Shown: in pieces, positions 3,077 to 27,923 of the stretch
How the letters are laid out: each line of letters starts with the position of its first letter
Numbering within the stretch: the first letter of the stretch is position 1
Virus record (IMG/VR): IMGVR_UViG_3300021963_000037
Span: 1 to 64,000 of that record
Reading direction: 5' to 3' (one strand)
Length of the DNA: 64,000 nucleotides
Origin: a virus
Position numbers and translations under genes: made by a program
The notes under the pieces: model-generated
What the model saw: only the letters and a program-made list of their open reading frames with translations
The model's database searches: none
What the model was told of the DNA's origin: nothing

Positions 3077-5095
3077 ATGGACCATATAGACGATTTAAAC
3101 AACGGACCAACCTCATCTAAAAAGGGTGGAAAGGGTAAAACTCCTTTCCTAGACCAATTTGGTGAAGACTTAACTCAAATGGCGGCTGAAGGCAAATTAG
3201 ACGCAATTATTGGTAGAGAAAAAGAAGTCCATAGAGTTTGCCAAATTCTTTCACGTAGAAAGAAAAACAATCCAATTATCTTGGGAGATCCAGGAGTTGG
3301 TAAAACTGCAATCGTTGAAGCTATTGCTCAACGTATTGTCGAGAAGAAAGTTGCAAGAACTCTCTTTAATAAAAGAATTGTATCTCTTAACCTGGCAAAT
3401 ATTGTAGCTGGTACAAAATACCGTGGAGAATTTGAAGAGAGAATGAAGGCAATTGTTGATGAGCTTAAAGCTAATCAAGATGTGATTGTCTTTGTTGATG
3501 AGATTCATACAATTATCGGTGCTGGAGGATCTAGTGGTTCTCTAGATGCTTCTAATATCTTAAAACCTGCCCTTGCAAGAGGACAAGTTCACTGTATTGG
3601 CGCTACAACATCTGATGAGTATCGAGAACATATTGAACAGGATGGAGCCTTAACTCGTCGTTTTCAAGAAGTTTTTATCGATCCACCAACAATTGATGAG
3701 ACAATCGAAATCTTAAATAGAATTAAAGACAAGTACGAAGACCACCATGCAGTAACTTATACGTCAGAAGCTATTGAAGCTTGCGTTAAAATGTCTGAAA
3801 GATATATCACTCAACGTGAACTTCCAGACAAGGCTATTGATGTGATGGACGAAGTTGGTTCTAAAATTCATTTGCTAGAAATTAAGGTTCCTTCTCATGT
3901 AAAAAAGATGGAGACTGATGCTGAAGAATTCGGTAAGCAAAAGCACGAAGCTGTTGCAAAACAAGATTATGAAGAGGCTGCAAAGTACAGAGACTTAGAA
4001 CTTTCTAAGAAAAAAGAAATTGACCAAAAAATAAAAGATTGGGAAAAGAGCTTACGAGATAAAAAACGTAATGTAACTGACCAGGATGTTGCTAATACAA
4101 TTGCAGAAATTACTGGAATACCGGTTGCCAGATTAAACGGTGACGAGAGTAAAATGATACTGAATATGAATAAAGAACTCAAGAAGTTAATTATTGGTCA
4201 GGATCAAGCGGTCGATTCTTTATGTAAGGTTATTAAACGATCTAGAGCAGGAGTTTCCTCAGCTAAAAAACCTTTAGGGTCATTCATGTTTATCGGTCCT
4301 ACTGGAGTCGGTAAAACTGAAACTGTTAAAGCACTTTCTGAATATTACTTTGGTTCCGAAGATAATTTGATCCGAGTTGACTGTAGCGAATACCAAGAGA
4401 AGTTTACTGTTTCTCGTCTAGTTGGAGCTCCTCCAGGATATGTTGGTTATGAAGAAGGCGGTCAATTAACTGAGCAAGTTCGTCGTAAACCTTATTCAGT
4501 GGTTCTATTTGACGAGATTGAAAAAGCACATCCAGATATTTTTAACACTCTACTTCAGGTATTAGATGATGGTAGGTTAACAGACTCACTAGGTAGAACT
4601 ATTGATTTTACTAACACTATTATCATTATGACTTCAAATATTGGTGCTCGTAAATTCTCTGAATTTGGTATCGGAATTGGTTTTCAAACTGATGTATCTG
4701 AAGCTACACAAAAAGCTAAAATGGAATCAGTTATTCGTAAAGAACTTAAGAACAAGTTCCCACCTGAATTCTTAAACCGTTTAGATGATATGGTTCTATT
4801 TGAACAATTATCAGAAGATTCTATTCTTAAGATTGTTGATATTGAATTGACTGACGTTTGCGAGAGATTATTCGATCAGGGAATTCAAATCAAATTTACA
4901 AAAACAGCAAAACTATTTTTAGTAAAAGAAGGATATGATGTTGCTTATGGTGCTAGACCTTTAAAAAGAGCAATTCAAAGTCATGTAGAAGATTTATTAG
5001 CTGATGCTATTATCGATAAAACTATAACTCCTTCAGACGAGTTCTATTATACGATTACCTTCGACAAGGAATTGAATAAACTTTATATCCAATAA
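3077..5095 (+). CDS. clpC: ClpC-like AAA+ unfoldase lacking the N-terminal Clp-repeat domain
   Basis: Walker A GDPGVGKT and GPTGVGKT; KYRG and GYVG pore loops; UVR-type M domain (QDYEEAAKYRD); IGF ClpP-docking loop. Confidence 0.92.
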   Translation: MDHIDDLNNGPTSSKKGGKGKTPFLDQFGEDLTQMAAEGKLDAIIGREKEVHRVCQILSRRKKNNPIILGDPGVGKTAIVEAIAQRIVEKKVARTLFNKRIVSLNLANIVAGTKYRGEFEERMKAIVDELKANQDVIVFVDEIHTIIGAGGSSGSLDASNILKPALARGQVHCIGATTSDEYREHIEQDGALTRRFQEVFIDPPTIDETIEILNRIKDKYEDHHAVTYTSEAIEACVKMSERYITQRELPDKAIDVMDEVGSKIHLLEIKVPSHVKKMETDAEEFGKQKHEAVAKQDYEEAAKYRDLELSKKKEIDQKIKDWEKSLRDKKRNVTDQDVANTIAEITGIPVARLNGDESKMILNMNKELKKLIIGQDQAVDSLCKVIKRSRAGVSSAKKPLGSFMFIGPTGVGKTETVKALSEYYFGSEDNLIRVDCSEYQEKFTVSRLVGAPPGYVGYEEGGQLTEQVRRKPYSVVLFDEIEKAHPDIFNTLLQVLDDGRLTDSLGRTIDFTNTIIIMTSNIGARKFSEFGIGIGFQTDVSEATQKAKMESVIRKELKNKFPPEFLNRLDDMVLFEQLSEDSILKIVDIELTDVCERLFDQGIQIKFTKTAKLFLVKEGYDVAYGARPLKRAIQSHVEDLLADAIIDKTITPSDEFYYTITFDKELNKLYIQ

Positions 5096-5103
5096 GTGTA
5101 TAA
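5077..5103 (+). promoter_or_regulatory. class B promoter
   Basis: TAAAC-17 nt-TATAA. Confidence 0.6.
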
Positions 5104-5120
5104 CCTTTATAAAATAATTA

Positions 5121-6017
5121 ATGAGCAATTTTTCAAATCAATTTACCGGAATCATTAACAAAATCAATGATTCCGGTTCTGAATCACAACCAAGAAATTT
5201 AAAAGTACGTGAACTTATATACGGACAGTTTGATGTAGATTCTACTCAGCCATTCGCATCTTTTAAAGACCGTGCTTTTAACTGGAAATACTTTGCAGGT
5301 GAAGTAGCATGGTATCTTAAAAAAGATAATGATATTGACTACATCAACAAGTTTTCTAATTTCTGGAAAGGCATAACAAACCCAAATACAAATACCATTA
5401 ATTCAAATTACGGTTCTCTACTTTTTGGATCGCAACTTAAATGGTGTCTTGACAGTTTAAAAGTTGACAATAATACTCGTCAAGCAATTGCATTCTTAAA
5501 TCAGCCTAAATTTCAATTTGAAGGTAACAAAGATTTTGTTTGTACGATGTACTTAAATTTCTTTATTCGAGATAATAGGTTACATATGAAAGTTCAGATG
5601 CGTTCTAATGATATTTTCTATGGACTTACATTTGATGCACCGTTTTTTGCAGTAGTACACCAGCATATGTTGCTTTGGTTAAAAGAAACCTATCCAACTT
5701 TAGAACTTGGGACATATACTCATTTTGCTGACAACATTCATTATTATGAAAGACATTTTGAATTGTCTGATCAGATTCTCACAAATGGTTTATCTGATAA
5801 TCAATACATTATGGATATTAAACAACCTCTATTTACATTAGAAGATAATGGTATTAAATATACAGAAGCTGGTTTATCCTTCATTAGTGAAGTTGATGCA
5901 ATCTCAGAAAATGAAAATGCTAAAGGTAAAAACTATCTTGAAATTTTATCAAAATACTTAAATGTAAAAAATGCAAGTACCATTAATCAAGATAATACTG
6001 AGCAAAGTGCAGGCTAA
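5121..6017 (+). CDS. thymidylate-synthase-fold enzyme, probably dCMP hydroxymethyltransferase (T4 gp42-like)
   Basis: INSNYG, DFVCT, MRSNDIFYGLTFD (Asp at the substrate-specificity position), HYYERHF. Confidence 0.75.
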   Translation: MSNFSNQFTGIINKINDSGSESQPRNLKVRELIYGQFDVDSTQPFASFKDRAFNWKYFAGEVAWYLKKDNDIDYINKFSNFWKGITNPNTNTINSNYGSLLFGSQLKWCLDSLKVDNNTRQAIAFLNQPKFQFEGNKDFVCTMYLNFFIRDNRLHMKVQMRSNDIFYGLTFDAPFFAVVHQHMLLWLKETYPTLELGTYTHFADNIHYYERHFELSDQILTNGLSDNQYIMDIKQPLFTLEDNGIKYTEAGLSFISEVDAISENENAKGKNYLEILSKYLNVKNASTINQDNTEQSAG

Positions 6018-6279
6018 TTATCCAATCAGCACCTATATCCAAGAAGAAGGAGAAGATGCTCTAAATAGACATATCGTCTCTCATGTGATTAACACGTTAG
6101 ATGGTAAAATTAAACATAATCTTCTTTGTCAATTCGAAGACGAGTATGGCGCTAAATATAATGTAACTCTAGATAAAGATAGCTGGAAAAAATCATTAGG
6201 TAAAGCGCATCAATATTTCTTAAAGATCGAGGAATATGAAACTTGTAAAATTATTAAAGAAACACTAGAAAAAATATGA
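5971..6279 (+). CDS. small protein with C-terminal UVR-like motif
   Basis: YFLKIEEYETCKIIK; ATGA-coupled to clpP. Confidence 0.7.
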   Translation: MQVPLIKIILSKVQANYPISTYIQEEGEDALNRHIVSHVINTLDGKIKHNLLCQFEDEYGAKYNVTLDKDSWKKSLGKAHQYFLKIEEYETCKIIKETLEKI

Positions 6280-6956
6280 ATCTATTCGACAAAAAATCTG
6301 AGTTTAGCAGATACGCAAAATCCGAACATAACGTATCTTCATTAAATTTAGATTACTACCAAAAACAAATTAAAGGATCTTTAACCCCATATATTTTGGA
6401 GGAAAGAGAACTTAGAGCCGTTCAAATGGACATTTTCTCTAGGTTGATGATGGATCGAGTATTATGGGTTGCCGGTGAAGTAAATGACAATATGTCAACC
6501 ATCGTACAAGCTCAGCTGATGTTCTTAGATTCAACAGGTCAGGATGATATTACAATGCATATCGATTCAGGAGGTGGATCTGTTAAGTCAGGTCTTTCAA
6601 TGGTTGATGTTATGGATTATATCAATTGTGATATTAAAACAGTAAACACTGGTATGGCAGCATCTATGGGATCCGTTCTTTTAGGAGCTGGTACTAAAGG
6701 TAAAAGAGCATCATTAAGACATTCAACAACAATGCTACATCAATCTTCTGGCGGTTTTAGTGGAAATATTCAAGATGCTGAAATTGATTGGAAAGAATGG
6801 CAAAAAGTAAATAAGATTCTTTTTGATCTTTTAGGAGAATATTGTGGAAAACCAGCAGATGTGGTTATGAAAGATGCTACAAGAGATTTTTGGTTAAACG
6901 CTGAAGATGCATTAGCGTACGGCATAATTGATACAATTGTTAAAAGAAATAAATAA
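6276..6956 (+). CDS. clpP: ClpP protease subunit
   Basis: MDIFSRLM; AASMG (Ser), MLHQ (His) and RDFWL (Asp) catalytic triad. Confidence 0.95.
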   Translation: MNLFDKKSEFSRYAKSEHNVSSLNLDYYQKQIKGSLTPYILEERELRAVQMDIFSRLMMDRVLWVAGEVNDNMSTIVQAQLMFLDSTGQDDITMHIDSGGGSVKSGLSMVDVMDYINCDIKTVNTGMAASMGSVLLGAGTKGKRASLRHSTTMLHQSSGGFSGNIQDAEIDWKEWQKVNKILFDLLGEYCGKPADVVMKDATRDFWLNAEDALAYGIIDTIVKRNK

Positions 6957-6959
6957 AAA

Positions 6960-7166
6960 ATGAATGTACATATTTACATTGAATCTGAAAAGGTAGAGTA
7001 CTTAAAAAGGATTCTTGATATTGTTTGGTCTTTAGACGAAGATGAACATGATTCTATCATATACCAGAACGTTCCTGCTAAAGGTTGGATTCAAGTATCT
7101 ATGTCATCAAACGAATTTATTGCTTTAACAGATCGTGGACTATTAAATGAACTTATTGAACTATGA
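6960..7166 (+). CDS. hypothetical protein
   Basis: 68-aa ORF tiling the operon. Confidence 0.7.
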   Translation: MNVHIYIESEKVEYLKRILDIVWSLDEDEHDSIIYQNVPAKGWIQVSMSSNEFIALTDRGLLNELIEL

Positions 7167-7477
7167 GTAGAGAAAGACAAAAGAAATTGTTTATTGAACT
7201 AATTAATAAGCAGTTAGAACCATTTGGAAAAACCTACGATGATGTAGTAAATTTACCAAATTGGTACATGAATTATCAAACCACGCCTGAAGAACAAAAG
7301 AAATTTAGCGATTATTGCGCTAATCGAATTTCTAAAGAATTAGGTCTTACTAAGAAAATGGCTGAAATGGAAGCTAGTTGGTTTATACTCCAGTGGGGTT
7401 TAACAACTTCTAAGACCGAATACAACCAAGATCCTGAAAAAGATTCTATCCCAGTAGAAATCAAGAAAAAGAATTAA
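7163..7477 (+). CDS. hypothetical protein
   Basis: 104-aa ORF with ATGA overlap. Confidence 0.75.
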   Translation: MSRERQKKLFIELINKQLEPFGKTYDDVVNLPNWYMNYQTTPEEQKKFSDYCANRISKELGLTKKMAEMEASWFILQWGLTTSKTEYNQDPEKDSIPVEIKKKN

Positions 7478-7479
7478 CA

Positions 7480-7513
7480 AATATCTCCATGATAAATAAG
7501 TCATGGAGATATT
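7480..7513 (+). promoter_or_regulatory. 13-bp hairpin enclosing a late-promoter motif and the start codon
   Basis: AATATCTCCATGA-TAAATAAG-TCATGGAGATATT; GATAAATA at 7491, ATG at 7503. Confidence 0.7.
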
Positions 7514-8192
7514 AAATAAAGATTGGCTGAATTCTCAGCCAATTGACTACGAACTTAAAAAGTATAAACTTCTTTCTGCTGGAAAGAAGTACCAATCGCT
7601 TATCAATGGTTACGAGTTATTTCCAGTCCTAGATGAAATTGAAGCTCATTTAGATTTCCTCTATAAATTCAAATATAAAATCGACGAGATTGATAATAAT
7701 CTTAAGATTTTAAAAGGTATCGATATAGATACAATGTCTCTTCTTTACGAAAAGTCAAATGACACTGATTTAGAAACCATCGCTAGTATTTCTGAAGACG
7801 CTACTATCTTTTTTGAAAAGATTTATAAAGATATTCGTGGAAGATGGAGAGATGTCGAGAAGTTTATAAACTTTACTCAGATACCAGACAGAAGATCTGT
7901 CTACTCTAAAGGTTACATGATTCTATGTGACTACGATAAAACGTATTCTATTTATGAATTCCATAAACCTAGTTCATCACAAAAGGAATGGAAAGATTTT
8001 AAATTAATCCTTATTAGAGACAAAGAACCTTATATTCTAGAAAATGTAGGTGAATTTGTTACTAATACCGGAATCTCTGAACCATCTTCTATTTTTGTAC
8101 GAGCCGATATTAAAAAGCAATTTCCATTAGATTCTTGCTTATTTCCCATTTCAAAGTTTAAATTGTTCAATTTCCTTAAAACAGGAATTTAA
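7503..8192 (+). CDS. hypothetical protein, resembles a Bacteroidota conserved hypothetical
   Basis: 229-aa ORF with N-terminal IDYELKKYKLL motif; resemblance recalled, not verified. Confidence 0.7.
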   Translation: MEILNKDWLNSQPIDYELKKYKLLSAGKKYQSLINGYELFPVLDEIEAHLDFLYKFKYKIDEIDNNLKILKGIDIDTMSLLYEKSNDTDLETIASISEDATIFFEKIYKDIRGRWRDVEKFINFTQIPDRRSVYSKGYMILCDYDKTYSIYEFHKPSSSQKEWKDFKLILIRDKEPYILENVGEFVTNTGISEPSSIFVRADIKKQFPLDSCLFPISKFKLFNFLKTGI

Positions 8193-8230
8193 CTAAAATA
8201 TATAAACAGATAAAAATAATTATTTCAAAA

Positions 8231-9682
8231 ATGGCATACGCTGTACAAGACGATATTCTCGTTTATTTAGAACAGGTTGTTTTAGTCGGTCAAGGACTAT
8301 CTACAAATATAAAATTAACATTCTACAAAGATTTTGTAGGTTCTCACCTTGACATTAGAAAAACAGGATCTCTTAGAATTTCTTTATTTAATCCGGCTGG
8401 AAAAAGATTATTAACTTACAATTATCCAACTGGTTACGGCGAACCTATTACAGCATCGTATGCTGAAGAGACTAAAGGTGAAATTGAATTTACAATTTCT
8501 AAATTCTATTCTAGTAATTTAGATCTGGAACCTTTATATGCTGAGATTGTTTTTATTGACGAAAAGAATTATTTCCCAAATACAAAAAGATATGAATTTC
8601 AACAATTTCAAATTGCTGAAGTTGTTACGAGTAATGTTCCGCCACTCTCTGATGGAGTTACTGGAGATGCATTAGTATCTTTATTTAATATTAGTTCTAT
8701 CACGGGACAAAACCCAACTGAACACGGCAATATATCTTTTAACAATTCATTACCTGCTAATACAACTTCGGTTATTTTAAATAACATCAACACTAATCAT
8801 ATTAGGCTCTCTTCTCTAGAAAACTTTTTAACTAAAAGAATTCAAACAGCAGGAGAAACTGGAATTATTACATTGATTAATGCTGATTCACCAACACAGT
8901 ATGCTGTTTATAAAATTACAGGCTGGAGTAGAATAAATTTAGATGCTAATAGTTCAAACTCTGATTTTGCAGATGCTATTAAATTAGATTTACAATATGA
9001 GGCAACTACATCCAGTCCGGTTATTACTAATTTAGAATGGGTTATTGGTAAAAATGTATCTTATCAATTAGAATCTTATACTTCGGTTTCTGATATTAAA
9101 AATGATGTTACTTCGGTAAATACTAAAGTTGCTACAGTAAATGCATCGATAGATTCTATGGAAATTGCATTAGGTGGAAGCAGCACTGGTCTAGTAAATT
9201 CAGTAGATTCGATTGAAACAACAATTTCAACAGTACAAGGATCTGTTAGTGGCGTACAAAATAATCTATCGAGTATTGAAACTATATTAACTGGTCAAAT
9301 TACAGCAATTCTAGCAAGTATAACAGCACTGTCAAATGTTGTTGTTAATCCAGGTGATACCGCTCCTAATGTTATACCTTTCACCGAAAGAAATAAAACA
9401 CCTAATAATACCTCTGGTATTGGACAACCTACTGGGATTACAGTATCTAATAATTTAGCATCAACTTCCTATATGGAAGTAAACGTTAACGGTGTTATTA
9501 TCGATGTTGGAAATGGATTAAAAATGCAATGGCCATGTTATTTCTCTAGAGATGGTGGTATTGTTCCATTAATGTATTCTGAAATCCAGTCGGGTGATCA
9601 AATGTATTGGAATAGTAATATTGCAGGATTTGATTTAGAAACAACTGACACTATTGATTTAAATTATCAAATAGAACGTTAA
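8231..9682 (+). CDS. putative virion fibre/structural protein
   Basis: Ser/Thr/Asn-rich with a short coiled coil shared with the next gene; late motif upstream. Confidence 0.6.
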   Translation: MAYAVQDDILVYLEQVVLVGQGLSTNIKLTFYKDFVGSHLDIRKTGSLRISLFNPAGKRLLTYNYPTGYGEPITASYAEETKGEIEFTISKFYSSNLDLEPLYAEIVFIDEKNYFPNTKRYEFQQFQIAEVVTSNVPPLSDGVTGDALVSLFNISSITGQNPTEHGNISFNNSLPANTTSVILNNINTNHIRLSSLENFLTKRIQTAGETGIITLINADSPTQYAVYKITGWSRINLDANSSNSDFADAIKLDLQYEATTSSPVITNLEWVIGKNVSYQLESYTSVSDIKNDVTSVNTKVATVNASIDSMEIALGGSSTGLVNSVDSIETTISTVQGSVSGVQNNLSSIETILTGQITAILASITALSNVVVNPGDTAPNVIPFTERNKTPNNTSGIGQPTGITVSNNLASTSYMEVNVNGVIIDVGNGLKMQWPCYFSRDGGIVPLMYSEIQSGDQMYWNSNIAGFDLETTDTIDLNYQIER

Positions 9683-9775
9683 AATAATCAAAATAGTTCT
9701 AAAAGGGGAGTCCATCCCTAATATATAAAACAACCATGGAAATAACTCTTTGGGACCAAAAAATTATAAAAAGAC

Positions 9776-11641: not shown

Positions 11642-11674
11642 TTAATTTCTTAACATATTAATTAATAATTTAAA

Positions 11675-11699
11675 GGGAGTCTTCGGACTCCCTTTTTTT
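11675..11699 (+). terminator. intrinsic terminator with C(UUCG)G loop
   Basis: GGGAGTC-TTCG-GACTCCC followed by a T run. Confidence 0.9.
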
Positions 11700-11735
11700 A
11701 TGTTGATAAATAGACTATAAAATAAAAGTCGAATT

Positions 11736-12970: not shown

Positions 12971-15946
12971 GTGTCAGTAATTAAAATTAAACAGGTACAA
13001 AGCCTAGAAACTACAATAACATCGTTAGACACTAGAATTAGTGCTATTCCTGCAGGTGCTCAAGGATCACAAGGTCGACAAGGTCCTCAAGGAATCATTG
13101 GTTCTACTGGAGCACAAGGAAACCAAGGACCTACTGGATTTCAAGGAAACCAAGGACCAACAGGTATTCAAGGAACTGTTGGAGCTCAAGGAAATCAAGG
13201 ACCAACAGGTATTCAAGGAACTTTTGGAACACAAGGTGCTCAAGGTCGTCAAGGACCGCAAGGAAACCAAGGACCTACTGGATTTCAAGGAAATCAAGGT
13301 CCAACTGGATTACAAGGAACTGTTGGAGCACAAGGAAATCAAGGACCAACTGGATTACAAGGAACTACAGGTTCTCAAGGAAATCAAGGTCCAACTGGAT
13401 TACAAGGAACTACAGGTTCTCAAGGAAATCAAGGACCAACTGGATTACAAGGAACTGCCGGAACTACAGGTGGACAAGGTACTCTAGGTAACTTTGGTGG
13501 AGACTCTGCGTTATGGAGAGTTAGTTTATTTAGTGCACCTTTAGCAGATCCTGGTATTGGTAGAATTAATTTTAATGGAGCATCTGCTTCAACATCCGCA
13601 GACCTATATATTAGTACTCAAGATATTTTATCAATAAATCAAGCAAACTGGCTAGCTGCAATGGGAGCTAGTACAAATATTCCAGAAGGATCTTTACGAA
13701 TTTCTAAAAATGGAAACAATTCTATTTTTGCAGATTATCAAATTACTTTAGTAACTAATTTAACAACATATTACGACATTAAGGTAACATTAGTTTCTTC
13801 TAATGGATCCTTTGTCGCTGGAGATGATACAGTTGTTTCATTTACTCGAGCTGGAGATAAAGGAGCACAAGGTTCTCAAGGTGCAACAGGTTCTCAAGGA
13901 ATTACAGGTGCTCAAGGAACTCAAGGTCCTACTGGATTCCAAGGAGTTATCGGTTCTACAGGTGCTCAAGGAAACCAAGGTCCAACAGGTATTCAAGGAA
14001 CAGTTGGACAACAAGGAAACCAAGGACCAACTGGTATTCAAGGAACAGTTGGAACAACTGGAACTCAAGGTCGTCAAGGACCACAAGGAAACCAAGGACC
14101 AACCGGTATAACAGGTGCTCAAGGAAACCAAGGTCCAACAGGTATTCAAGGAACAGTTGGACAACAAGGAAACCAAGGACCAACTGGTATTCAAGGAACT
14201 TTAGGTTCTCAAGGTTCAACTGGTGCTCAAGGAGCATTAGGAGCTCAAGGTTATCAAGGTACTACAGGACAAGGATTTATAATCTATCAAACATATAATA
14301 GTTTAGCATTACTTTTAGCTGATAACACTTGTCCAAACGGACAATTTGGTTTAGTTGGAGGTTCTCTACCGCAGTCAGATCCTGATTATGGTAAATTATA
14401 TTTAAGAACTGGAGGAGCATGGTCTTTTACAACTGACATGTCGATCCAAGGTATACAAGGTTCAACAGGAGCTCAAGGTTCAACAGGAGCTCAAGGAGCT
14501 ACAGGCCTTCAAGGAATTCAAGGACCAACTGGTCTTCAAGGAATTACTGGAGCACAAGGAAACCAAGGACCAACTGGTCTTCAAGGAATTACTGGAGCAC
14601 AAGGAAACCAAGGACCAACTGGTCTTCAAGGACTTCAAGGTATTATTGGTACACAAGGAGCTCTTGGTGCACAAGGTCGTCAAGGACCTACTGGTCCAAC
14701 TGGAGCACAAGGAAACCAAGGACCAACAGGTATTCAAGGAACCTTTGGAGCACAAGGAAACCAAGGACCAACAGGTCCCGGATCATCAGTCGCTGGACCT
14801 CAAGGTAATCAAGGTCCTGTTGGAACCGGTTCTCAAGGTGCAACAGGTGCTCAAGGTCGTCAAGGTCCATCTGGAATTGATGGAATAGCAGGAGCAAATG
14901 GTATTCAAGGAGCCGCTGGAACAAACGGAAGTAATGGTGCTGCAGGCCCACAAGGTGTTCAAGGACCAACAGGTCCTCAAGGAACTGCAGGTAGTAATGG
15001 AACAAATGGAACACCTTCATCTGTTGCCGGTCCTCAAGGTGCTCAAGGTCCTACAGGACCAGGTTCAACAGTAGCTGGACCTGCCGGTCCACAAGGACGT
15101 CAAGGACCTACTGGACCACCAGCAACAAATGGTACAAATGGAAATCAAGGAAATCAAGGACCTGCTGGTCCTCCAGGAGGCGGAGGATCTCCAGGACCTC
15201 AAGGTGCACAAGGTTATACTGGACCAGTATCAACAACTCCTGGCCCTCCAGGCCCTCCAGGTCCTGCAACATACGATGCAAGTAGTGTTAGTGGTGTAGG
15301 TATTAGTCGATTTGTATATGGTGACGGAGACAAGAAGAGTGCACAAATGAATGATTCAAATCAATATAATCAAGCATCTGGTTTCTTCTTCATGCCGCCA
15401 AGTACAAATGGAGCACACTCTGGAGATTGGCAAACTTGTATGCATGCGATGGGTAACTCATGGTCATCTAACTATGGATTCCAACTTCAACATGATTTTC
15501 ATAATGACTCATTTGGAGTACGAAGAGTAACCAATGGCGGATTTGGAGGTTGGAGAGAACTCTTAACTGTTACGAACTGGACATCTTATATTACTAATAA
15601 TGGTTATGCAAATGCAATGAACCAGTATGTTAATACAAACTCTAGTCCAACATTTACTGATGTTACTATTAGTTCTGACTCTAGATTAAAAGAAGATATT
15701 GAAACTATAGATAATGCATTACAAACAGTTGAATCTCTTAGAGGTGTTCAATTTAAACTTAAGAATGCTCTGACAGATAGATTAAGAACTGGTGTAATTG
15801 CACAAGAAATCGAACAAGTCCTACCTGATATTGTAGTTGACGGAGTAGATGGATATAAAAAGGTAAGCTATAATGATTTAATTGGAGTCTTAATTGAAGC
15901 TATTAAAGAATTATCAGAAAAAGTTAAAAACTTAGAAAATAAATAA
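12971..15946 (+). CDS. collagen-like tail fibre with C-terminal intramolecular chaperone (peptidase S74)
   Basis: Three Gly-X-Y tracts (GNQGPT); SDSRLKEDI...GVIAQE...[17 protein letters not shown]; GTG start. Confidence 0.88.
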
Positions 15947-17812: not shown

Positions 17813-17817
17813 TATTT

Positions 17818-18937: not shown

Positions 18938-19864
18938 ATGATTACATCACATTACACTTCAAACCAGAACGTATTTTGGTATTTCGATTCAGTCGAAAAA
19001 CAAGAAAGTGTTTATTACAAAGCAAAAGGTTGGATTGTTGTCAAGGATGGTGACCACTTTAAACCAGTTAGTTCATTGAGTATCAATGAAATAGAAATAT
19101 CATTCGAAAGAACACATCGTCCTGATGTACAAGGTTATTATCCGGGTAAAGACACTAAAGTTGGAGTTGAATTCATTTTTAGATCAGGTCAGGATATTAC
19201 GGTTCATTTTGGAGATTTAAAATACAACTGTGGAAATATCGACAATTATATTGCATTCCATTCTGGATTCGCAAATGAGAATAAAGGTCTAATTGTAGTT
19301 GATAACTTCTATGCTAATCCGGATTTTGTCAGAGATTTTGCAATGAAATCTCTAGATTTTAATCCTTCTAATTATCACAAGGGCAAAAGAAGCGCTGAAA
19401 GATTTATTTTAGAAGGTACTAAAGAGAAATTAGAGAAAATCATTGGTCGAGAGATTACTAATTGGAATTATGAAAGATATGCAAATGGTGTATTCCAATA
19501 TTGTGTAGCAAACGACCCATTAGTATTTCATGTCGATACACAAAATTATGCAGGAATGGTATTCTTAACTAAGGATGCTCCATTCGATACAGGTACATCA
19601 ACTTATTCTAGTAAAATTACTGGAAGAAAGAGATTTGATGATCCTGCCCTAGATGAAGAAGCATATGTTGCTTCATTTAAAGGCAAAAATGCTGAAATGA
19701 ATTTCTATGATGGAACTCATTTTGACAAAATTGATGAGGTTGGCAACGTGTACAACCGTTTAGTTCTATTCGATGCTAAACAAATTCATGCTCCTAGCAA
19801 ATACTTCGGTGATGCTATTGAAAATGCAAGATTCTTTCACATGTTCTTTTTTGATGTAATTTAA
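18938..19864 (+). CDS. 2OG-Fe(II) oxygenase-like protein (DUF6445-like)
   Basis: IVVDNFY.NPD, HVD, YNRLVLFDA..IH, R..HMFFF. Confidence 0.7.
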   Translation: MITSHYTSNQNVFWYFDSVEKQESVYYKAKGWIVVKDGDHFKPVSSLSINEIEISFERTHRPDVQGYYPGKDTKVGVEFIFRSGQDITVHFGDLKYNCGNIDNYIAFHSGFANENKGLIVVDNFYANPDFVRDFAMKSLDFNPSNYHKGKRSAERFILEGTKEKLEKIIGREITNWNYERYANGVFQYCVANDPLVFHVDTQNYAGMVFLTKDAPFDTGTSTYSSKITGRKRFDDPALDEEAYVASFKGKNAEMNFYDGTHFDKIDEVGNVYNRLVLFDAKQIHAPSKYFGDAIENARFFHMFFFDVI

Positions 19865-19869
19865 TAAAT

Positions 19870-21717: not shown

Positions 21718-22388
21718 TAACTTTTATAATACCAACTCTTTGGAAATCTGATAAAATCAAAGGGACAATAGAATCTATTATTAAATCTGACCGGAAGGAT
21801 GTAGAATTAATCATAATAGATAATCTAAATTCAAACTATTCTACAAGTGATCCTAGAATTACGGTGGTCAAAGTAAAAAACAACATCTATGTTAATCCAG
21901 CATGGAATATTGGAGCTACTTTGGCAAGGAATGAATACATTTGTCTATTGAATGATGATATTTCTTTGAACGTTGATTGTCTCTTAAATAATTTTGAAAA
22001 ATTTAAAGAATCAGCACCGGATTTTGGAATGATTGGATTACATAATGACAATATAATTAATGGTCTAAATTCTAACTCAATAAATTCTGACAACGATAAT
22101 TTAGAATTAGAAGAGTTAGATTGCAGAGTATATGGATTTGGTTGTATGATGATTTTAAAGAAAGCTAATTATGTTCAGATCCCAAATGAATTTAAAGTCT
22201 TTTTTGGAGATGATTACTTATATTTCTATAATAAAGATTTGAAAGGTCGAAAAATCTATCAAATCAAAGGACTTAAAACTCCAGGAGATGTATCGGTTAC
22301 GAGTAAAGAATTTGAAGATACTCATATGCAACAAGAACATCAATATTGGGATAACGCAATACAAGATTTAATAACTAAACATAAATAA
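21714..22388 (+). CDS. family 2 glycosyltransferase
   Basis: IIPT, IIIDN, NPAWNIG, LLNDDI. Confidence 0.85.
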   Translation: MITFIIPTLWKSDKIKGTIESIIKSDRKDVELIIIDNLNSNYSTSDPRITVVKVKNNIYVNPAWNIGATLARNEYICLLNDDISLNVDCLLNNFEKFKESAPDFGMIGLHNDNIINGLNSNSINSDNDNLELEELDCRVYGFGCMMILKKANYVQIPNEFKVFFGDDYLYFYNKDLKGRKIYQIKGLKTPGDVSVTSKEFEDTHMQQEHQYWDNAIQDLITKHK

Positions 22389-22391
22389 AAT

Positions 22392-22991
22392 ATGAACTTT
22401 CAAAACATTTTTGTACAACCAGAAAACGATCCTCAACAGTATTATTGGTTCGAAAAAGGATTTACACCAGCAGAATTAGAAAAAATCTATAATGATGTTG
22501 CAAATATTCCATTCGAAAAAGCAACTATTATCGGGGCAGACAAAACAGAGACTGACACATCAGTTAGAAGCTCTAGTATTAAATGGATTCCACAATCAAA
22601 CGAATGGTCTTGGTTATATGACAAATTAACCGCAATGGCTAGTGAAGCTAACGAAGCTCTTTGGGGTTTTGATTTAATTTCAGCACCTGAAGCAATTCAA
22701 TATACTGAATATTATGCAGACCAAGAAGGTCATTATACATGGCACCAGGATCTTGGAAATGGAATGGCATCAAGACGAAAAGTGTCAATCACTGTTCAAT
22801 TATCAGATGCTGATGATTATGAAGGTGGAGACTTAGAATTATGGGGAGGTGGAGAATGGATTCGTCAAGCACCACGTGGAAAAGGAAATGTTGTTGTATT
22901 TCCATCTTACTTAATGCACAGAGTAAAACCTGTTACTAAAGGAACTCGTCGTTCTTTCGTACTTTGGGTAGGTGGTCAACACTACAAATAA
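22392..22991 (+). CDS. 2OG-Fe(II) oxygenase (P4Hc/PKHD-like)
   Basis: YTWHQD, RKVS, YEGGDL, FPSYLMHRVKPVTKGTRRS. Confidence 0.9.
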   Translation: MNFQNIFVQPENDPQQYYWFEKGFTPAELEKIYNDVANIPFEKATIIGADKTETDTSVRSSSIKWIPQSNEWSWLYDKLTAMASEANEALWGFDLISAPEAIQYTEYYADQEGHYTWHQDLGNGMASRRKVSITVQLSDADDYEGGDLELWGGGEWIRQAPRGKGNVVVFPSYLMHRVKPVTKGTRRSFVLWVGGQHYK

Positions 22992-23008
22992 AAAGTAATA
23001 TATAGAGT

Positions 23009-23953
23009 ATGAAATCTCTATTAACATTTGAACAATTTATAAACGAAGCAATCGTCAAGGATGATTTCAAGAAAGTGTGTATCACTCGAAGAAAGATTCT
23101 TGACGATTCTTTTATTACGGGTCCAGCATACAAATCAAAAGAATACTGGAATGTTATAACAAGAGATATGGAATCTATCGAAAACTTCGATGATATGCCT
23201 GTCTTAAATTATGATCGAGGAACTTTAGAAAAGTTTTTAGAAAACGGTATGATTAAACCATACCAAGTTTACAATAATATTGAAGCTAGAGAAACTATTG
23301 TTTCAAAGGCAAAATTCTATAAGGAACATGCTGATAGTGGATATATTGTTCCTACTGCAACTGATAAAAATGATGTTGGTAAACTTAAGTTTCCAATTGT
23401 TGCAAAGCCTGACAATGAACACAGTGGATTAGGTATTACCGTATTTAAAGATGCTAAAGAATTTGAAAATGCAGATTTAAGTAAGTTCTCTTCTTTCTCA
23501 GAAAAAATAGATATTGCTGAAGAGCATAGATATTTTATGTGGAGAGATGAAATTATCCAGTGGTGTCAAAGAGTTCCTATGGATGACGAAACAGCAGACA
23601 TTGCTAAAAAAGATCCAGAAAAAGAAACTAACTTTTCTTATATTCTTAAAGATGTTAAAGACATCAAAGACTCCCATATTAAAGCAATTAGATATTTCTC
23701 TGATGCTCATCAAGATTTAGACTTCTACGCAATTGATTTGGCCGAAGATGCTAAAGAAAACATTTATGTGTTTGAAATGAATTCTGAACCTGGTACCCTA
23801 TTTGGAGTACTTACAATTGTTTATCAAAGAATCTACGAAGATTACTATGAGAAGCCAATGGATCCAAGTACTATTGAATTATTAAAACAATATAAAGAAG
23901 CTGATTCTAAGCAGAACACAAAACAAAATCCTAACTGGAAAGTTCAAAAATAA
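23009..23953 (+). CDS. ATP-grasp (RimK-like) protein with putative capsid-targeting N-terminus
   Basis: FPIVAKP..HSGLG, AIDL and FEMNSEPG; N-terminal MKSLLTFEQFINE. Confidence 0.65.
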   Translation: MKSLLTFEQFINEAIVKDDFKKVCITRRKILDDSFITGPAYKSKEYWNVITRDMESIENFDDMPVLNYDRGTLEKFLENGMIKPYQVYNNIEARETIVSKAKFYKEHADSGYIVPTATDKNDVGKLKFPIVAKPDNEHSGLGITVFKDAKEFENADLSKFSSFSEKIDIAEEHRYFMWRDEIIQWCQRVPMDDETADIAKKDPEKETNFSYILKDVKDIKDSHIKAIRYFSDAHQDLDFYAIDLAEDAKENIYVFEMNSEPGTLFGVLTIVYQRIYEDYYEKPMDPSTIELLKQYKEADSKQNTKQNPNWKVQK

Positions 23954-24193
23954 ATGGGATATCCGAATAACAAGTGTATGGTACTAACGATATACGTCCA
24001 CCACATGCTTGTGGACGAACTATTTGACTTCTTGAATGATAGGATTGATACTCCACCCCCATACTGGTTCAATGAATCTGATGCTCCTTATTCTATTTCA
24101 GGTGGATATATTGCTATCCATCTAACATACGATCAATACACTAAAGTTCGCTCAATTCGTAATTGGGCAGATCCTTTCGAAACTTTAGATTAA
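23954..24193 (+). CDS. hypothetical protein
   Basis: 79-aa ORF abutting the previous gene. Confidence 0.7.
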   Translation: MGYPNNKCMVLTIYVHHMLVDELFDFLNDRIDTPPPYWFNESDAPYSISGGYIAIHLTYDQYTKVRSIRNWADPFETLD

Positions 24194-24217
24194 ACCTTTC
24201 TCTTTTTTTTCATATAA
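24191..24217 (+). promoter_or_regulatory. class B promoter
   Basis: TAAAC-17 nt-TATAA. Confidence 0.6.
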
Positions 24218-24259
24218 TTTGAAAATACTTTGCAAAATATTTTACCGTTTGAAATATTT

Positions 24260-24276
24260 TGTTTATATTTACATAT
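24260..24276 (+). promoter_or_regulatory. class A promoter motif TGTTTATATTTACATAT
   Basis: 17-mer repeated upstream of five small genes. Confidence 0.75.
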
Positions 24277-24290
24277 AACAAATTAGATAT

Positions 24291-24566
24291 ATGGCAAAGA
24301 AACAGAAAGAACTTCAAGTTATCAACGTTAAAAATCCTAAAATAGGTAAAATCTATGAATTTACATGGGCTAAAATATCCGTGTATCATGGTACTCTTCT
24401 AGAAGAGAATATTAATCTAACAAAATCTTATGGTGTTAAATGGTATTCATTTGCCGTTCCTGCTTCTCCAGAAGATGCTGCTAAATTAGGTCGACCTTAT
24501 TGGGTTTATCCTTGCTCAATCTTTGATATTATTAAAGAAGTTCCAGAAATTAAAATCGTAAAATAA
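24291..24566 (+). CDS. hypothetical protein
   Basis: 91-aa ORF. Confidence 0.75.
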   Translation: MAKKQKELQVINVKNPKIGKIYEFTWAKISVYHGTLLEENINLTKSYGVKWYSFAVPASPEDAAKLGRPYWVYPCSIFDIIKEVPEIKIVK

Positions 24567-25294
24567 TGTATACTAAAGAAGAAATCAAATCGATGTTGTT
24601 CATCGATATCGAGACGACATCTGGATTTAAGACTCTAGATGAATTAAAAGAATCTCATCCTGAGCTTATAAGTTTCTGGGATCGTAAAGAAAAGTTTATT
24701 CGAGCAGAGGATGTAGAACTTAAGGATGCTGAAAGTTCAGACATTTATTTTCAAAAGGCATCTTTGACTGCTGAATGGGGACGAATAGTTTGTATCTCAG
24801 TTGGTCAAATCAAATTTGATGAGGACGATGTTCCATTCATGCAAAAGAAATCATTCTATGGTTCTGACGAAAAAGAATTGTTGGTTGATTTTGTTAACTT
24901 TATGAGCCAAGTATTCTTTAAGGCACCTGGTATTAAACTGGTTGGACACAACATTAAGGGATTTGATTTACCTTATATTATTAAGAAGTCCATTCTATAT
25001 AGTTTAGAATTACCTAGACAACTTCACTTACATAAAGTTAAACCTTGGGAAAACTGTCTTATTGATACCTATGAAGTATGGAAAGCGGGAGGTTGGTCTA
25101 GTGCTGCATTAGCACATCTCTGTATCTTATTAGGAATTAAGAACCCTAAAGATGATATGAATGCTGGAGAAGTTGGAGCAGCTTTTTATGCTGGTCGAAT
25201 TGAAGAGATTAAAAACTATTGCGAAGAGGACATTGAAGCAGCCGGTAGCTTAATGTTGAAATTTGCCAATATGTCACCAATTAGAAGTTACTAA
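24566..25294 (+). CDS. PolB-like 3'-5' exonuclease (DEDD family)
   Basis: FIDIET, GHNIKGFD, YCEED. Confidence 0.85.
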   Translation: MYTKEEIKSMLFIDIETTSGFKTLDELKESHPELISFWDRKEKFIRAEDVELKDAESSDIYFQKASLTAEWGRIVCISVGQIKFDEDDVPFMQKKSFYGSDEKELLVDFVNFMSQVFFKAPGIKLVGHNIKGFDLPYIIKKSILYSLELPRQLHLHKVKPWENCLIDTYEVWKAGGWSSAALAHLCILLGIKNPKDDMNAGEVGAAFYAGRIEEIKNYCEEDIEAAGSLMLKFANMSPIRSY

Positions 25295-25346
25295 TTTAGG
25301 TTTAATGACAATTTGGCATATTTTACCAAATGGCACACTTTTTGAG
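25264..25346 (+). promoter_or_regulatory. sigma54-type promoter with two upstream palindromic boxes
   Basis: TGGCAC-ACTTT-TTGA at 25331 (GG-N10-GA); TGCCAATATGTCA at 25264 and TGACAATTTGGCA at 25306. Confidence 0.6.
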
Positions 25347-25393
25347 TATATTATAGTAATGGCATAAGCCAGAAATTAAAAATAAATTAAATT

Positions 25394-25759
25394 ATGTTTA
25401 CAACAAGACAAACAAGTTTTGACAAAATGTGCGACGACATTTTTGGAAAATTCGAACAACCAATCTGGAAAACTACAATGTTTGCAGAAGATAAAGGATA
25501 CGTTGTTGAAAATGGAATTCTTTATATTTCTCTGCCTGGTTTTTCAAAAGAAGACGTCGATGTTAGCATTGATGGTAGAACATTAATTGTATCTGCTGAA
25601 ATTGCAAAAAAGGATGAGAATCCATTTAGAAAATCTTTTAGCAGAAGTTGGGTACTGGCCGACGATACAAGCGATGAGGTAACTGCTTCCATGGAAGATG
25701 GTCTATTATCACTATCATTTGGTAAAGCTCCTGAAAAGAAAAAAGTGAAAATTTCTTAA
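25394..25759 (+). CDS. Hsp20/alpha-crystallin small heat-shock protein
   Basis: LPGFSKEDVDVSI, FSRSWVL, ASMEDGLL. Confidence 0.9.
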   Translation: MFTTRQTSFDKMCDDIFGKFEQPIWKTTMFAEDKGYVVENGILYISLPGFSKEDVDVSIDGRTLIVSAEIAKKDENPFRKSFSRSWVLADDTSDEVTASMEDGLLSLSFGKAPEKKKVKIS

Positions 25760-25796
25760 AAATATTTCACTAAAAGTTTTTTTATGTCGCAAAAAT

Positions 25797-25813
25797 TGTT
25801 TATATTTACATAT
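25797..25813 (+). promoter_or_regulatory. class A promoter motif
   Basis: TGTTTATATTTACATAT. Confidence 0.75.
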
Positions 25814-25832
25814 CATTTAAAACTAATAAATA

Positions 25833-26150
25833 ATGTATAACGACGATTTTGAAAACGAAGATTTCTTTGAAGAGAACGAAGAAAATGAACAAGACGAAAT
25901 AACTCAAATTATGCAAACAAACGAAGTTAAAGGAATGTACTACGATGTAGTTGATCAGTTGGTTCGAGCTAACTTTAAAAACATTGAAACTAACGGTATC
26001 GATGTTGATAAAATGAAGCTTATTAACTTAAACCAAGATGAACTTAAGAACACATTAACATTCATGCTTAACTGGTTTGCCGAATTAGAAGAGTATGAAA
26101 AATGTGGACTATTAAAAAAGTACTTAGTCGAATTAGAAAAAGGAAGCTAA
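25833..26150 (+). CDS. acidic small protein with UVR-like motif
   Basis: WFAELEEYEKCGLLK. Confidence 0.75.
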   Translation: MYNDDFENEDFFEENEENEQDEITQIMQTNEVKGMYYDVVDQLVRANFKNIETNGIDVDKMKLINLNQDELKNTLTFMLNWFAELEEYEKCGLLKKYLVELEKGS

Positions 26151-26164
26151 CCGCTTCCTTTTTT
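26137..26164 (+). terminator. intrinsic terminator
   Basis: AAGGAAGC-TAACC-GCTTCCTT followed by a T run. Confidence 0.75.
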
Positions 26165-26195
26165 ATTTAGATAAATATATCATAACAATTTAATT

Positions 26196-26393
26196 ATGGC
26201 AACACCAAAGGAAACCCAGTTAATCGACGCTATGATGGCTTTAACAGTTCAGTTAAAGAGGATTGCTGATGTCGTTGAGCGAGATCAGAAGAAATCAATT
26301 ATAGAATATCGTAGAGAACAGCTTAATAAAGAAAAGAATGAGTTATTATCAGACATTAAGCGTTCAGGAAACGGCGACGCAGGACGAGATTAA
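26196..26393 (+). CDS. hypothetical protein
   Basis: 65-aa ORF after GATAAATA; overlaps dnaJ by 56 nt. Confidence 0.6.
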   Translation: MATPKETQLIDAMMALTVQLKRIADVVERDQKKSIIEYRREQLNKEKNELLSDIKRSGNGDAGRD

Positions 26394-27156
26394 GAATGCA
26401 TATCGCAGCCTAGCGAAGCAGTACCATCCTGACCGAAATCCAGACATATCATCTAAAGATAAATTTCAGGCAGTTCAAGAAGCCTATGAAACTCTTTCAG
26501 ATCCTTCTAAGCGACAGCAATACGATTTAAGTCGCAAATTTTCAGGTACTAATTTTAATATTAATGACTTATTCAGCCAATTTGGCGGAAATTGGTCTAA
26601 TGACTTTGATCGTCATTTTAATCATGAGAAATCTGCTCCAGGAAAAGACGTTAGAATTAATGCAACATTTAATATTCTAGATGCGTACCATGGAACTAGT
26701 CGTGTATTCGATCTAGGATTTGATAAAGTTCGAGTTGACTTTGCTCCAGGTCTACATACTGGCATGGTATTAAAAGTTTATGGTCGTGGAGATTACAATC
26801 GATTTAATACGACTGCACCTCGTGGAGACTTAATTATCAATATCAATATTCTACCAGATGATAACTTAATTCTACAGGGTCACGACATCTGGATGGATTC
26901 TTATGTTCCATTTTATGATTTAATTTTAGGAACCGAATTGACTGTAGAAACACCATTTGGCAAATATAAAGTTAATATACCACATAATACTGCTTCGGAA
27001 AGAATTTTAAGAATTCCAAATAAAGGAATGCCAATATATAAAACACAGGATCATGGTAGTTTACTCATTAAGGTACATGCCAATTTCAATTGCTTAAACA
27101 ATGAGCAGCTAGATCTTGTAAATAAAATTAAAGAATTGGCAAATGGAAAATCATAA
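26338..27156 (+). CDS. dnaJ: DnaJ/CbpA-like co-chaperone without zinc finger
   Basis: J domain with HPD motif and DnaJ C-terminal domain. Confidence 0.9.
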   Translation: MSYYQTLSVQETATQDEIKNAYRSLAKQYHPDRNPDISSKDKFQAVQEAYETLSDPSKRQQYDLSRKFSGTNFNINDLFSQFGGNWSNDFDRHFNHEKSAPGKDVRINATFNILDAYHGTSRVFDLGFDKVRVDFAPGLHTGMVLKVYGRGDYNRFNTTAPRGDLIININILPDDNLILQGHDIWMDSYVPFYDLILGTELTVETPFGKYKVNIPHNTASERILRIPNKGMPIYKTQDHGSLLIKVHANFNCLNNEQLDLVNKIKELANGKS

Positions 27157-27397
27157 TCAAGATATAGATGATGATGCTCTGAATTTTTTTAATGCAGTAC
27201 AAAATTTACCAAAGGATCAAATGATGGATTTGGTATATCATGCAATAATTAATAAGAAACAAGGCGCATTAAAAGGAAATTCAACGCGTGAGGAAAAGAT
27301 AGAAGCTTTAAATTTTATAATTGGCTGGTTCGAATCTTTAGAGGAGTATGAAAAATGCATTGAATTAAAAAAAATACTACAAGAAATATGCTTATAA
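27143..27397 (+). CDS. small protein with UVR-like motif
   Basis: WFESLEEYEKCIELK. Confidence 0.75.
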   Translation: MENHNQDIDDDALNFFNAVQNLPKDQMMDLVYHAIINKKQGALKGNSTREEKIEALNFIIGWFESLEEYEKCIELKKILQEICL

Positions 27398-27585
27398 TAG
27401 ACGTAAAAAACGGAAATATCGAACAAGCTCTTAAAAAATACAAGAGTAAAGTTGCTAAAACAAAGCAAATTAAAAAATTAAGAGATAGACAATCCTTTGT
27501 CAAACCATCCGTTGAAAAAAGAGATGAAATTCGTAAGGCAACTTATATTCAATCTTTAAGAACCAACACGGAAAAAGAATCATAA
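27388..27585 (+). CDS. rpsU: ribosomal protein bS21, Bacteroidota type
   Basis: MLII.VK..NIEQALKKYK...LRDRQSFVKPSV..R....KATY. Confidence 0.92.
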   Translation: MLIIDVKNGNIEQALKKYKSKVAKTKQIKKLRDRQSFVKPSVEKRDEIRKATYIQSLRTNTEKES

Positions 27586-27662
27586 TATAATCATCACATT
27601 TATATTTAACTGAACATTCCAGGAAATATATAATTCAAAATGATGATTGATTTTTACTGTGT

Positions 27663-27923
27663 ATGGGCGAGAATATACCAAATAGAGAAAAGGATAGTAT
27701 TATGAGGTCAAGTTACTACACTTTGACCCGTAACTTCACGAAAACAGTGAATAGATTCATTGTGTTTCAAGAAGGTAAAGACCTAATTGAAATACCACAC
27801 GGTATGGGACAACGCTCCAAATTCATAGAATTATTAGTTGATTATTTTGAAAAGATGGAAGAGTATGAAAAATGCGATTCTCTTATGAAATTAAAAGCAT
27901 TAGTCCTAATGGCTGGTGATTAA
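27663..27923 (+). CDS. small protein with UVR-like motif
   Basis: YFEKMEEYEKCDSLM. Confidence 0.75.
   Translation: MGENIPNREKDSIMRSSYYTLTRNFTKTVNRFIVFQEGKDLIEIPHGMGQRSKFIELLVDYFEKMEEYEKCDSLMKLKALVLMAGD

Follow-up and report, generated by a model that had tools for sequence, protein, structure and literature searches.

How is a ClpC-type unfoldase activated and aimed when it has no Clp-repeat N-domain? The question is raised by a clp block in the first 64 kb of a single virus record of 139,480 bp (IMG/VR record IMGVR_UViG_3300021963_000037); this 64,000-nt stretch is referred to below as the window. Bacterial ClpC, an unfoldase with two AAA+ modules, has a short M-domain of the UVR type and a loop that docks ClpP; it works with the adaptors MecA and McsA/McsB, and its Clp-repeat N-domain is the main adaptor site. 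The phage ClpC described here is encoded next to a ClpP, and a phage ClpCP protease could reveal how ClpC-type unfoldases get activated and aimed without the N-domain. An earlier note on this DNA, made from the sequence, proposed that four small proteins with a common C-terminal motif, called P3 to P6 here, serve this ClpC. The explanation that we prefer, on a tentative footing, is narrower. It holds that the phage has a ClpCP protease with P3 as a linked accessory, which would bind the D1/M region of ClpC as an adaptor or activator, and that P4, P5, and P6 would act in a chaperone module or on host partners.

The phage ClpC features the Pfam families AAA, AAA_lid_9, UVR, AAA_2, and ClpB_D2-small. 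The two AAA+ modules and the D2-small domain are placed by Pfam at residues 68–198 (PF00004), 398–571 (PF07724), and 578–654 (PF10431), and PHROG 4871, 'ATP-dependent protease', matches the protein with an E-value of 1e-244. The Pfam scan returned no Clp_N match in ClpC, and the first AAA match begins at about residue 45–68, therefore there is no space for a Clp-repeat N-domain. The best 120 of 8000 scored ClpC relatives are all at most 682 aa long (655–682 aa), and the Clp_N family, which we take to be accession PF02861, is listed for none of these 120. The absence of the N-domain is therefore stable in the clade and is not a truncation. The UVR motif of the M-domain scores 27.9 bits against a Pfam cut-off of 21.5; in a scan of the complete record it scores 31.4 bits, and PF02151 matches nothing else there at E ≤ 1. 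The sequence GIGF at residues 533–536, which we take to be the ClpP-docking [IVL]GF loop in D2, is invariant in an alignment of 23 sequences. In ClpP, S130, H155, and D204 are found in the contexts AASMG, MLHQ, and TRDFW and presumably form the Ser-His-Asp triad. The earlier note had described a ClpC that has lost its N-domain and keeps the UVR-type M-domain and the IGF loop, together with a ClpP with an intact triad, and all of these readings are borne out. The clpC-clpP block most likely makes a working phage ClpCP protease. Two related records carry altered copies of clpC. In G011 the gene is split into two open reading frames (ORFs) of 525 and 169 aa (G011:C1:10881-12849), and in G018 it features one in-frame TAA (G018:C1:74315-76300). 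These could be assembly errors or decaying copies.

The gene order of the clp block is conserved among relatives of the record. ClpC and ClpP were looked for in 20 large related records, and they occur together in the same 10 of the 20; all 10 ClpC-bearing records were taken for gene order. Each has the order clpC, thymidylate-synthase-like (TS-like) gene, P3-type ORF, clpP, and small ORFs, with the TS-like gene kept in position between clpC and P3 and the P3-type ORF abutting or overlapping clpP in 10/10. In the window, the P3 ORF overlaps the end of the TS-like gene by 47 nt and the start of clpP by 4 nt (ATGA), which is the coupling that the earlier note had pointed out. The P3 orthologs are 21–57% identical, whereas ClpC and ClpP are 68–86% identical. 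Residues Y89 and C92 are invariant in the P3 orthologs. These orthologs were found by position and not by the motif, so the conservation of the cysteine is not a search artefact. The two small ORFs that follow clpP also have orthologs in the clp blocks of the relatives, the ORF at 6960–7166 in 7/10 and that at 7163–7477 in 10/10. The TS-like gene, which the earlier note had passed over, might encode an enzyme that modifies deoxynucleoside monophosphates and is an odd companion for a protease operon. Directly upstream of clpC there is a LOG/SLOG-type gene of the 'lysine decarboxylase' family (2413–3075, PF03641, E 1.5e-31), which also stands upstream of clpC in the loci of 4 of the 10 relatives (L082, L083, L084, and L091).

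The loss of the clp block in one relative separates P3 from the other three small proteins. The gene at 7163–7477 served to mark the position of the block: 20 of 40 related records have this gene, and ClpP adjoins it in 18 of these 20. One exception is G001, a 170-kb record in which the homologs of the window genes at 1918–2151 and 7163–7477 are only 2.4 kb apart. There, a stretch of about 2.4 kb with tRNA-like sequence and small ORFs (G001:C1:69484-71831, L095) replaces the 4.7-kb LOG-clpC-TS-P3-clpP stretch. ClpC, ClpP, the TS-like gene, and P3, the last sought with a P3-specific hidden Markov model (HMM), were found nowhere in the 170 kb of G001, yet proteins of the P4, P5, and P6 types are retained in its DnaJ-S21-PhoH module. 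P3 is therefore inherited together with the clp block, which P4, P5, and P6 do not need. The second exception, G012, has a marker homolog that is only 35% identical and lies elsewhere, and this case is ambiguous. Among the 10 of 20 records without ClpC, G001 alone extends far enough upstream and carries the two flank markers; G007 stops just before the expected clp site, and the other ClpC-less records have less than 25 kb upstream and are uninformative. The TS-like gene was found in 0/5 of the ClpC-less records searched, which is consistent with a block that is absent or off the contig. The ORF translations in the G001 gap resemble read-through of tRNA genes, and the gap also holds a small Cys-rich ORF.

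Complex prediction was carried out with ClpC residues 1–360 (alignment of 23 sequences) and P3 (alignment of 18 sequences). The pair scored 0.44 (runs 0.46, 0.44, and 0.43), compared with 0.01 for the best of three controls. At least 100% of the contacts are shared between the runs, and the predicted local distance difference test (pLDDT) value of the partner is at least 77. In the calibration, the mark is reached by 58 of 80 solved complexes and by 2 of 110 mismatched pairs, and at scores of 0.60 or below it is reached by only 7 of the 80 solved complexes plus both passing mismatches; custom alignments were used for P3 and ClpC, so these counts hold only roughly for this pair. The prediction thus gives weak support to a P3–ClpC complex, and contact of P3 with the D1/M region of ClpC becomes more likely. 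The earlier note had suggested such a prediction for every one of the small proteins. It was made for P3 alone of the four and has no bearing on P4 to P6.

The other three motif proteins are encoded in a second conserved gene set, further downstream in the window (Table 1). The P5 gene shares 14 nt with the end of dnaJ and 10 nt with the start of rpsU, which results in a tightly coupled dnaJ-P5-rpsU string. Among 80 related loci, 61 have three motif ORFs with constant spacing, 14 have two, and 5 have one, and the loci with fewer than three are mostly at contig ends. The interleaving of the small genes with hsp20, dnaJ, rpsU, and phoH that the earlier note had seen is confirmed by Pfam for all four neighbours. 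Two repeated sequences stand upstream of genes in this region. The 13-mer TGTTTATATTTAC has 7 copies, at 24260, 25797, 30143, and 30505 in the window and at 89495, 121483, and 137869 in the record. It lies about 30–36 nt upstream of the ORF starts at 24291 and 25833, which are those checked, and on sequence it looks like a promoter motif. The 9-mer ATATATAAT also has 7 copies (window 27626, 41746, and 45639; record 87104, 110231, 116773, and 132077). Two of them closely precede structural-region ORFs, at 41757 and 45678, and the 9-mer may be a second promoter class. The upstream motifs that had been noted as different are thus real repeats. In two relatives, G014 (L087) and G019 (L088), the Hsp20/DnaJ module and motif proteins (11.3–13.0 kb) are only about 5 kb downstream of clpP, and the two proteostasis gene sets form a single island. 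The genes that flank the chaperone module of the window (23009–25294 and 29117–29746) encode a protein with a weak match to R2K-type ATP-grasp, a PolB-like 3'-5' exonuclease, and an RNase HII.

Table 1. Features of the clp block and of the chaperone module, in window coordinates
Feature	Coordinates	Strand	Basis
ClpC-type double-AAA+ unfoldase without Clp-repeat N-domain (P0001, 672 aa)	3077-5095	+	Pfam and PHROG 4871
UVR motif of the short ClpC M-domain (KQDYEEAAKYRD core)	3935-4015 (residues 287-313)	+	PF02151
Thymidylate-synthase-like gene inside the clp block	5121-6017	+	PF00303, E 1.6e-18, 67 bits
P3, 102-aa alpha/beta protein ending YFLKIEEYETC, candidate ClpCP accessory	5971-6279	+	synteny, AlphaFold2, complex prediction
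ClpP serine protease (P0395, 226 aa)	6276-6956	+	PF00574, E 5e-55
Two small conserved ORFs 3' of clpP, no family match	6960-7166, 7163-7477	+	orthologs in relatives
Hsp20	25394-25759	+	PF00011, E 1.5e-11
Repeated 13-mer TGTTTATATTTAC, 36 nt upstream of P4	25797-25809	+	7 copies in record
P4, 105-aa motif protein (WFAELEEYEKC)	25833-26150	+	orthologs conserved beside Hsp20/DnaJ
DnaJ, J domain and C-terminal domain	26338-27156	+	PF00226, PF01556
P5, 84-aa motif protein (WFESLEEYEKC)	27143-27397	+	motif profile, conserved spacing
Ribosomal protein S21	27388-27585	+	PF01165, E 2.5e-13
Repeated 9-mer ATATATAAT, upstream of P6	27626-27634	+	7 copies in record
P6, 86-aa motif protein (YFEKMEEYEKC), most conserved subfamily	27663-27923	+	relatives 64-92% identical
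PhoH-like ATPase	27938-28630	+	PF02562, E 2.5e-63

The four small ORFs share the F, EEYE, and C of the C-terminal motif. The pattern EE[YFW]E[KTRQ]C is found in exactly these 4 of the 850 ORFs of at least 30 aa in the record, so that the earlier count of four proteins with one C-terminal motif stands. A small HMM of the motif matches the four proteins with E-values of 1e-17 to 1e-19 and the next ORF with 0.023; across the record, the motif HMMs match just these four, and the UVR motif of ClpC is not among the matches. The possibility that the four are chance or non-coding ORFs was rejected, as conserved orthologs occur in many contigs. A search with the four-protein alignment gave 399 matches at E ≤ 1 among 1005 candidates. 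A 37-position C-terminal profile searched with HMMER against 1.84 billion cluster representatives (at 50% identity) gave 174 clusters at E ≤ 1e-3. The best 150 of these 174 members are 29–235 aa long and carry the motif at the C-terminus, except for one 484-aa membrane-repeat protein that is a false positive, and the N-termini of the family members are many and unrelated. The rebuilt family consensus is KKKALNKLINYFEEIEEYEKCAELKKILDKI (...L..hI.YFE..EEYEKCa.LKKI....), in which the Tyr and the Cys are constant. Pfam and PHROG assign no family to the four small proteins at meaningful E-values, and a Pfam scan of the best 150 members gave weak scattered matches, with DHR-2_Lobe_A in 13/150 (best E 0.0015). 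Additionally, tblastn searches with P0005 and P0006 against 50,697 phage records returned no match at E ≤ 1e-3.

In two AlphaFold2 models, one for the P3 family and one for the P6 family, the motif forms a helix-turn-helix hairpin. The P6 model has a mean pLDDT of 66.7, with about 81–83 at the C-terminus and helices at residues 50–64 and 68–83. The P3 model has a mean pLDDT of 85.4 and a predicted template modelling (pTM) score of 0.75, and features a compact beta-alpha-beta-beta-alpha-alpha domain. Its last two helices (69–85 and 89–101) are the motif hairpin, which is packed onto the alpha/beta core of the same protein; in this model the hairpin is therefore not a free docking tail. A wide VIA-align search with P3 reached a best Z of 5.5, which is below the noise range stated for the tool, and named no fold.

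The distribution of the family extends beyond phages with a known clp block. A second subfamily has an N-terminal part with AGE-x-x-x-YNRAW and the same C-terminus; it accounts for at least 273 of 598 pattern-bearing IMG/VR stretches among the matches listed and belongs to a phage group of about 160 kb. The 12 longest records of this subfamily (23–95 kb) have no ClpC (0/12), and 0/5 of its fragment records have a CLP_protease match; all are fragments, 14–59% complete in the case of the 12, so the absence of ClpC and ClpP is not proven for them. Pfam was run on 10 neighbouring ORFs of one locus (L152); a peptidoglycan-binding/chitinase-like protein and two matches below threshold came out, and none was a chaperone or a protease. 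The distribution of the AGE-type subfamily leans against a general tie between hairpin proteins and phage ClpC. In a 642-kb megaphage whose ClpC is 55% identical, a single motif ORF (E 1.8e-6) and the clpC gene are separated by 285 kb. The complete relative G006 gives 3 matches at E ≤ 0.01 with the four-sequence profile, which indicates that the hairpin family is not further expanded there. The co-occurrence of the motif with clpC, which the earlier note had put forward as a check, was seen for P3, found with the clp block in 10/10 relatives, and was not seen in the incomplete AGE-type fragments.

The earlier note had identified the hairpin as a UVR-type motif, which its shape and pattern resemble. 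The UVR-type feature of a helix-turn-helix hairpin of about 35 residues is seen in the P3 and P6 models. EEYEKCxxLKK can be set in register with (D/E)(F/Y)E(E/K)AAxxRD, with the UVR-like pattern [YF]E.[CA]..[LI][KR], and the invariant Cys of the hairpin stands where UVR has Ala. When hhalign compared the family profile with the full-length phage ClpC (117 aligned sequences), its single best placement was on the UVR core (297–307, P 0.2), and the best placement against E. coli UvrC is also on the UVR core (222–236, P 0.6), so that 2 of 4 targets are placed on the core with P 0.2–0.6. The ESM Atlas gave two leads, both of which are viral clusters of about 100-aa proteins. The first, to which P0005 led by features (0.88) and P0003 by structure (template modelling score 0.76), has PF02151 on 13% of 52 members; the second has PF02151 on 57% of 87 members, with a feature score of 0.83 that is below the trust line of the tool. 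In our reading the hairpin is more likely than not a divergent UVR-like motif, for which homology is not significant in any test.

In the preferred reading, the conserved block of a clpC without N-domain, the TS-like gene, P3, clpP, and small ORFs would give rise to a phage ClpCP protease, and P3, translationally coupled to clpP, would be its dedicated accessory. By binding the D1/M-domain region of ClpC as an adaptor or activator, P3 would stand in for functions that the N-domain normally supports. The genes for Hsp20, P4, DnaJ, P5, S21, P6, and PhoH form a second conserved module. The four small proteins belong to one large unnamed phage family in which the hairpin is the putative shared structural or docking module and the N-termini differ, and P4, P5, and P6 would be independent of the phage ClpCP, probably with other partners such as the neighbouring chaperone-type products or host Hsp100/UVR proteins. 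A number of results weigh against this reading. The linkage of P3 could be plain gene-order conservation within one clade, the co-occurrence of ClpC, ClpP, and P3 is not independent evidence because all of the relatives are kin, and one clear loss event, G001, alone informs the co-loss of P3 and the clp block. ClpC could also work without any adaptor. The weakly supporting P3–ClpC prediction gives no interface and so no location on ClpC, and docking on the M-domain is unsupported by it. Regarding the hairpin, Pfam UVR matches 0/4 of the small proteins in the window at E ≤ 0.01 and 1/150 of the listed family members (E 0.01), ClpC has the only PF02151 match in the record, and the hhalign placements fall off the UVR core in E. 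coli UvrB and in the ClpC of Staphylococcus phage SpP. A sequence-profile search of the PDB with the hairpin returned 0 matches at E ≤ 10. Foldseek searches of the PDB returned 0 matches at E ≤ 1e-3 for the P6 model (best 1.7) and for the P3 model (best 0.47), and two McsA chains among the P6 matches have E-values of 3.4–5.7, which is noise level. These searches returned no solved structural relative of P3 or P6, so the reading can draw on no resemblance to MecA, ClpS, or McsA/B.

Three other explanations were considered. The earlier note held that all four small proteins are interchangeable ClpC adaptors, in which the UVR-type hairpin docks on the M-domain, the N-termini pick substrates, and different promoters time proteolysis. 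One shared C-terminal module on four dissimilar N-termini suits this proposal, as do the fold of the hairpin, its UVR pattern in register with the M-domain motif of ClpC, and the different repeats upstream of P4 and P6; the weakly supporting, roughly calibrated complex score of P3 points the same way, as does the short distance between chaperone module and clpP in G014 and G019. In plants, UVR-domain proteins are enriched in CLPC1 traps (PMC8889267), which also favours it. The proposal is nevertheless unlikely. G001 keeps the P4, P5, and P6 types without a phage ClpC or ClpP in its 170 kb, the binding prediction covers P3, the same-motif AGE-type subfamily occurs in fragment records without ClpC or CLP_protease, and UVR homology is not significant. 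The earlier interpretation is partly supported. P3 retains a case as a partner of ClpC, through synteny, co-loss in G001, and the weakly supported complex, and the case is weakened for P4 to P6, which persist where ClpCP is gone.

It is somewhat more credible, and still doubtful, that the hairpin has no function with Clp and is a generic domain of small proteins in marine phages, perhaps for oligomerisation or for targeting host proteins, as in host takeover, and that the place of P3 reflects gene order only. The size and diversity of the family, with 174 clusters and many unrelated N-termini, agree with this, and the group of phages of about 160 kb has no detected ClpC/ClpP and no chaperones or proteases among the neighbours. 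The distance of 285 kb between motif ORF and clpC in the megaphage and the persistence of three paralogs in G001 without phage ClpCP are in line with it too. Such a domain does not readily account for P3, however, which stays at clpP in 10/10 relatives despite fast sequence change and vanishes with the block, and for which the complex prediction, while weak support, is well above its controls. Finally, each paralog could be a private partner or regulator of the adjacent product (P3 of ClpP, P4 of Hsp20, P5 of DnaJ or S21, and P6 of PhoH), with the hairpin as a scaffold only. The tight conserved adjacency, the overlaps of P5 with dnaJ and rpsU and of P3 with clpP, and the same spacing of three motif ORFs in 61/80 loci are what such pairs would show; adjacency alone is weak evidence, the pairings are indistinguishable because the whole module is syntenic, and we regard this arrangement as very unlikely. 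The reading in which P3 is the accessory of a phage ClpCP remains the best explanation.

Several known systems are comparable. Phage proteins that redirect host Clp proteases are already known, namely SPO1 Gp53 and phage ClpS. SPO1 Gp53 is an adaptor-like protein that a phage supplies to the ClpCP of Bacillus subtilis; it binds the host ClpC, chiefly at the N-terminal domain and linker, and competes with MecA (PMC6873191). P3 resembles it in that both are small phage proteins for which binding to ClpC and redirection of a ClpCP protease have been proposed; however, Gp53 targets the N-domain of host ClpC, whereas here ClpC is phage-encoded and lacks the N-domain, and P3 binding is suggested by one weakly supporting prediction. 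In the chloroplast, the UVR-domain proteins of the CLPC1 network include CLPF, EXE1/2, and UVR2-4 (PMC8889267). The likeness is that unrelated proteins share a UVR helical motif with a ClpC-type chaperone. The UVR motifs there are at Pfam level, whereas the phage motif is below Pfam significance and has Cys where UVR has Ala. Only by analogy with plant CLPC1 is a UVR-to-ClpC link for the phage hairpin plausible. A survey of jumbo phages reports sporadic ClpP, DnaJ, Hsp20, or a ClpS adaptor for host ClpAP, and 'ClpC' occurs nowhere in that text (PMC7824862). The present clade differs in that a full ClpC and ClpP pair with a linked small protein is near-core in one marine clade. A keyword search of open-access texts, supplements excluded, returned no description of the ClpCP of this clade or of the motif family.

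The phage ClpC shares with its bacterial counterparts the two AAA+ modules, the short M-domain of the UVR type, the loop for ClpP docking, and a place next to ClpP. It differs in lacking the Clp-repeat N-domain, and no homolog of MecA or McsB was seen with it; no solved chain was matched significantly in the fold searches with P3 and P6. A phage that carries both ClpC and ClpP, the former lacking its N-domain, and a linked protein as candidate accessory would make a compact and tractable system. Neither Pfam nor PHROG matches the hairpin family, which is large and conserved in marine phages that are abundant; a function assigned to it would annotate hundreds of 'hypothetical' genes. A much broader proposal, which we consider quite improbable, is that this clade of marine phages of about 250 kb runs a self-contained ClpCP in which ClpC has lost its N-domain and recognition has been passed to small proteins with a Cys-bearing UVR-like hairpin, and that the hairpin, in at least 174 clusters of marine phages, generally serves to dock proteins on the M-domains of Hsp100 or on other UVR-type coiled coils of phage or host. 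If this were true, the hairpin would be a modular way for phages to retarget unfoldases.

The window is a portion of the genome of an uncultured marine myovirus-like phage of about 250 kb with two proteostasis gene sets. The record is about 50% complete according to CheckV, and its nearest complete relative, G006, has direct terminal repeats and a length of 256,444 bp. The relatives come from marine metagenomes, including Tara samples. A search of 50,697 deposited phage records gave a closest ClpC with no more than about 55% identity, and the clade is therefore taken to be uncultured. The assignment as myovirus-like follows from the presence of baseplate-wedge and tail-fibre families in the phage of this record. 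The window also encodes a 991-aa collagen-like or tail-fibre repeat protein (12971–15946) with a G+C content of 0.39 compared with about 0.32, and many opposite-strand ORFs overlap this gene, which is typical of repeat coding.

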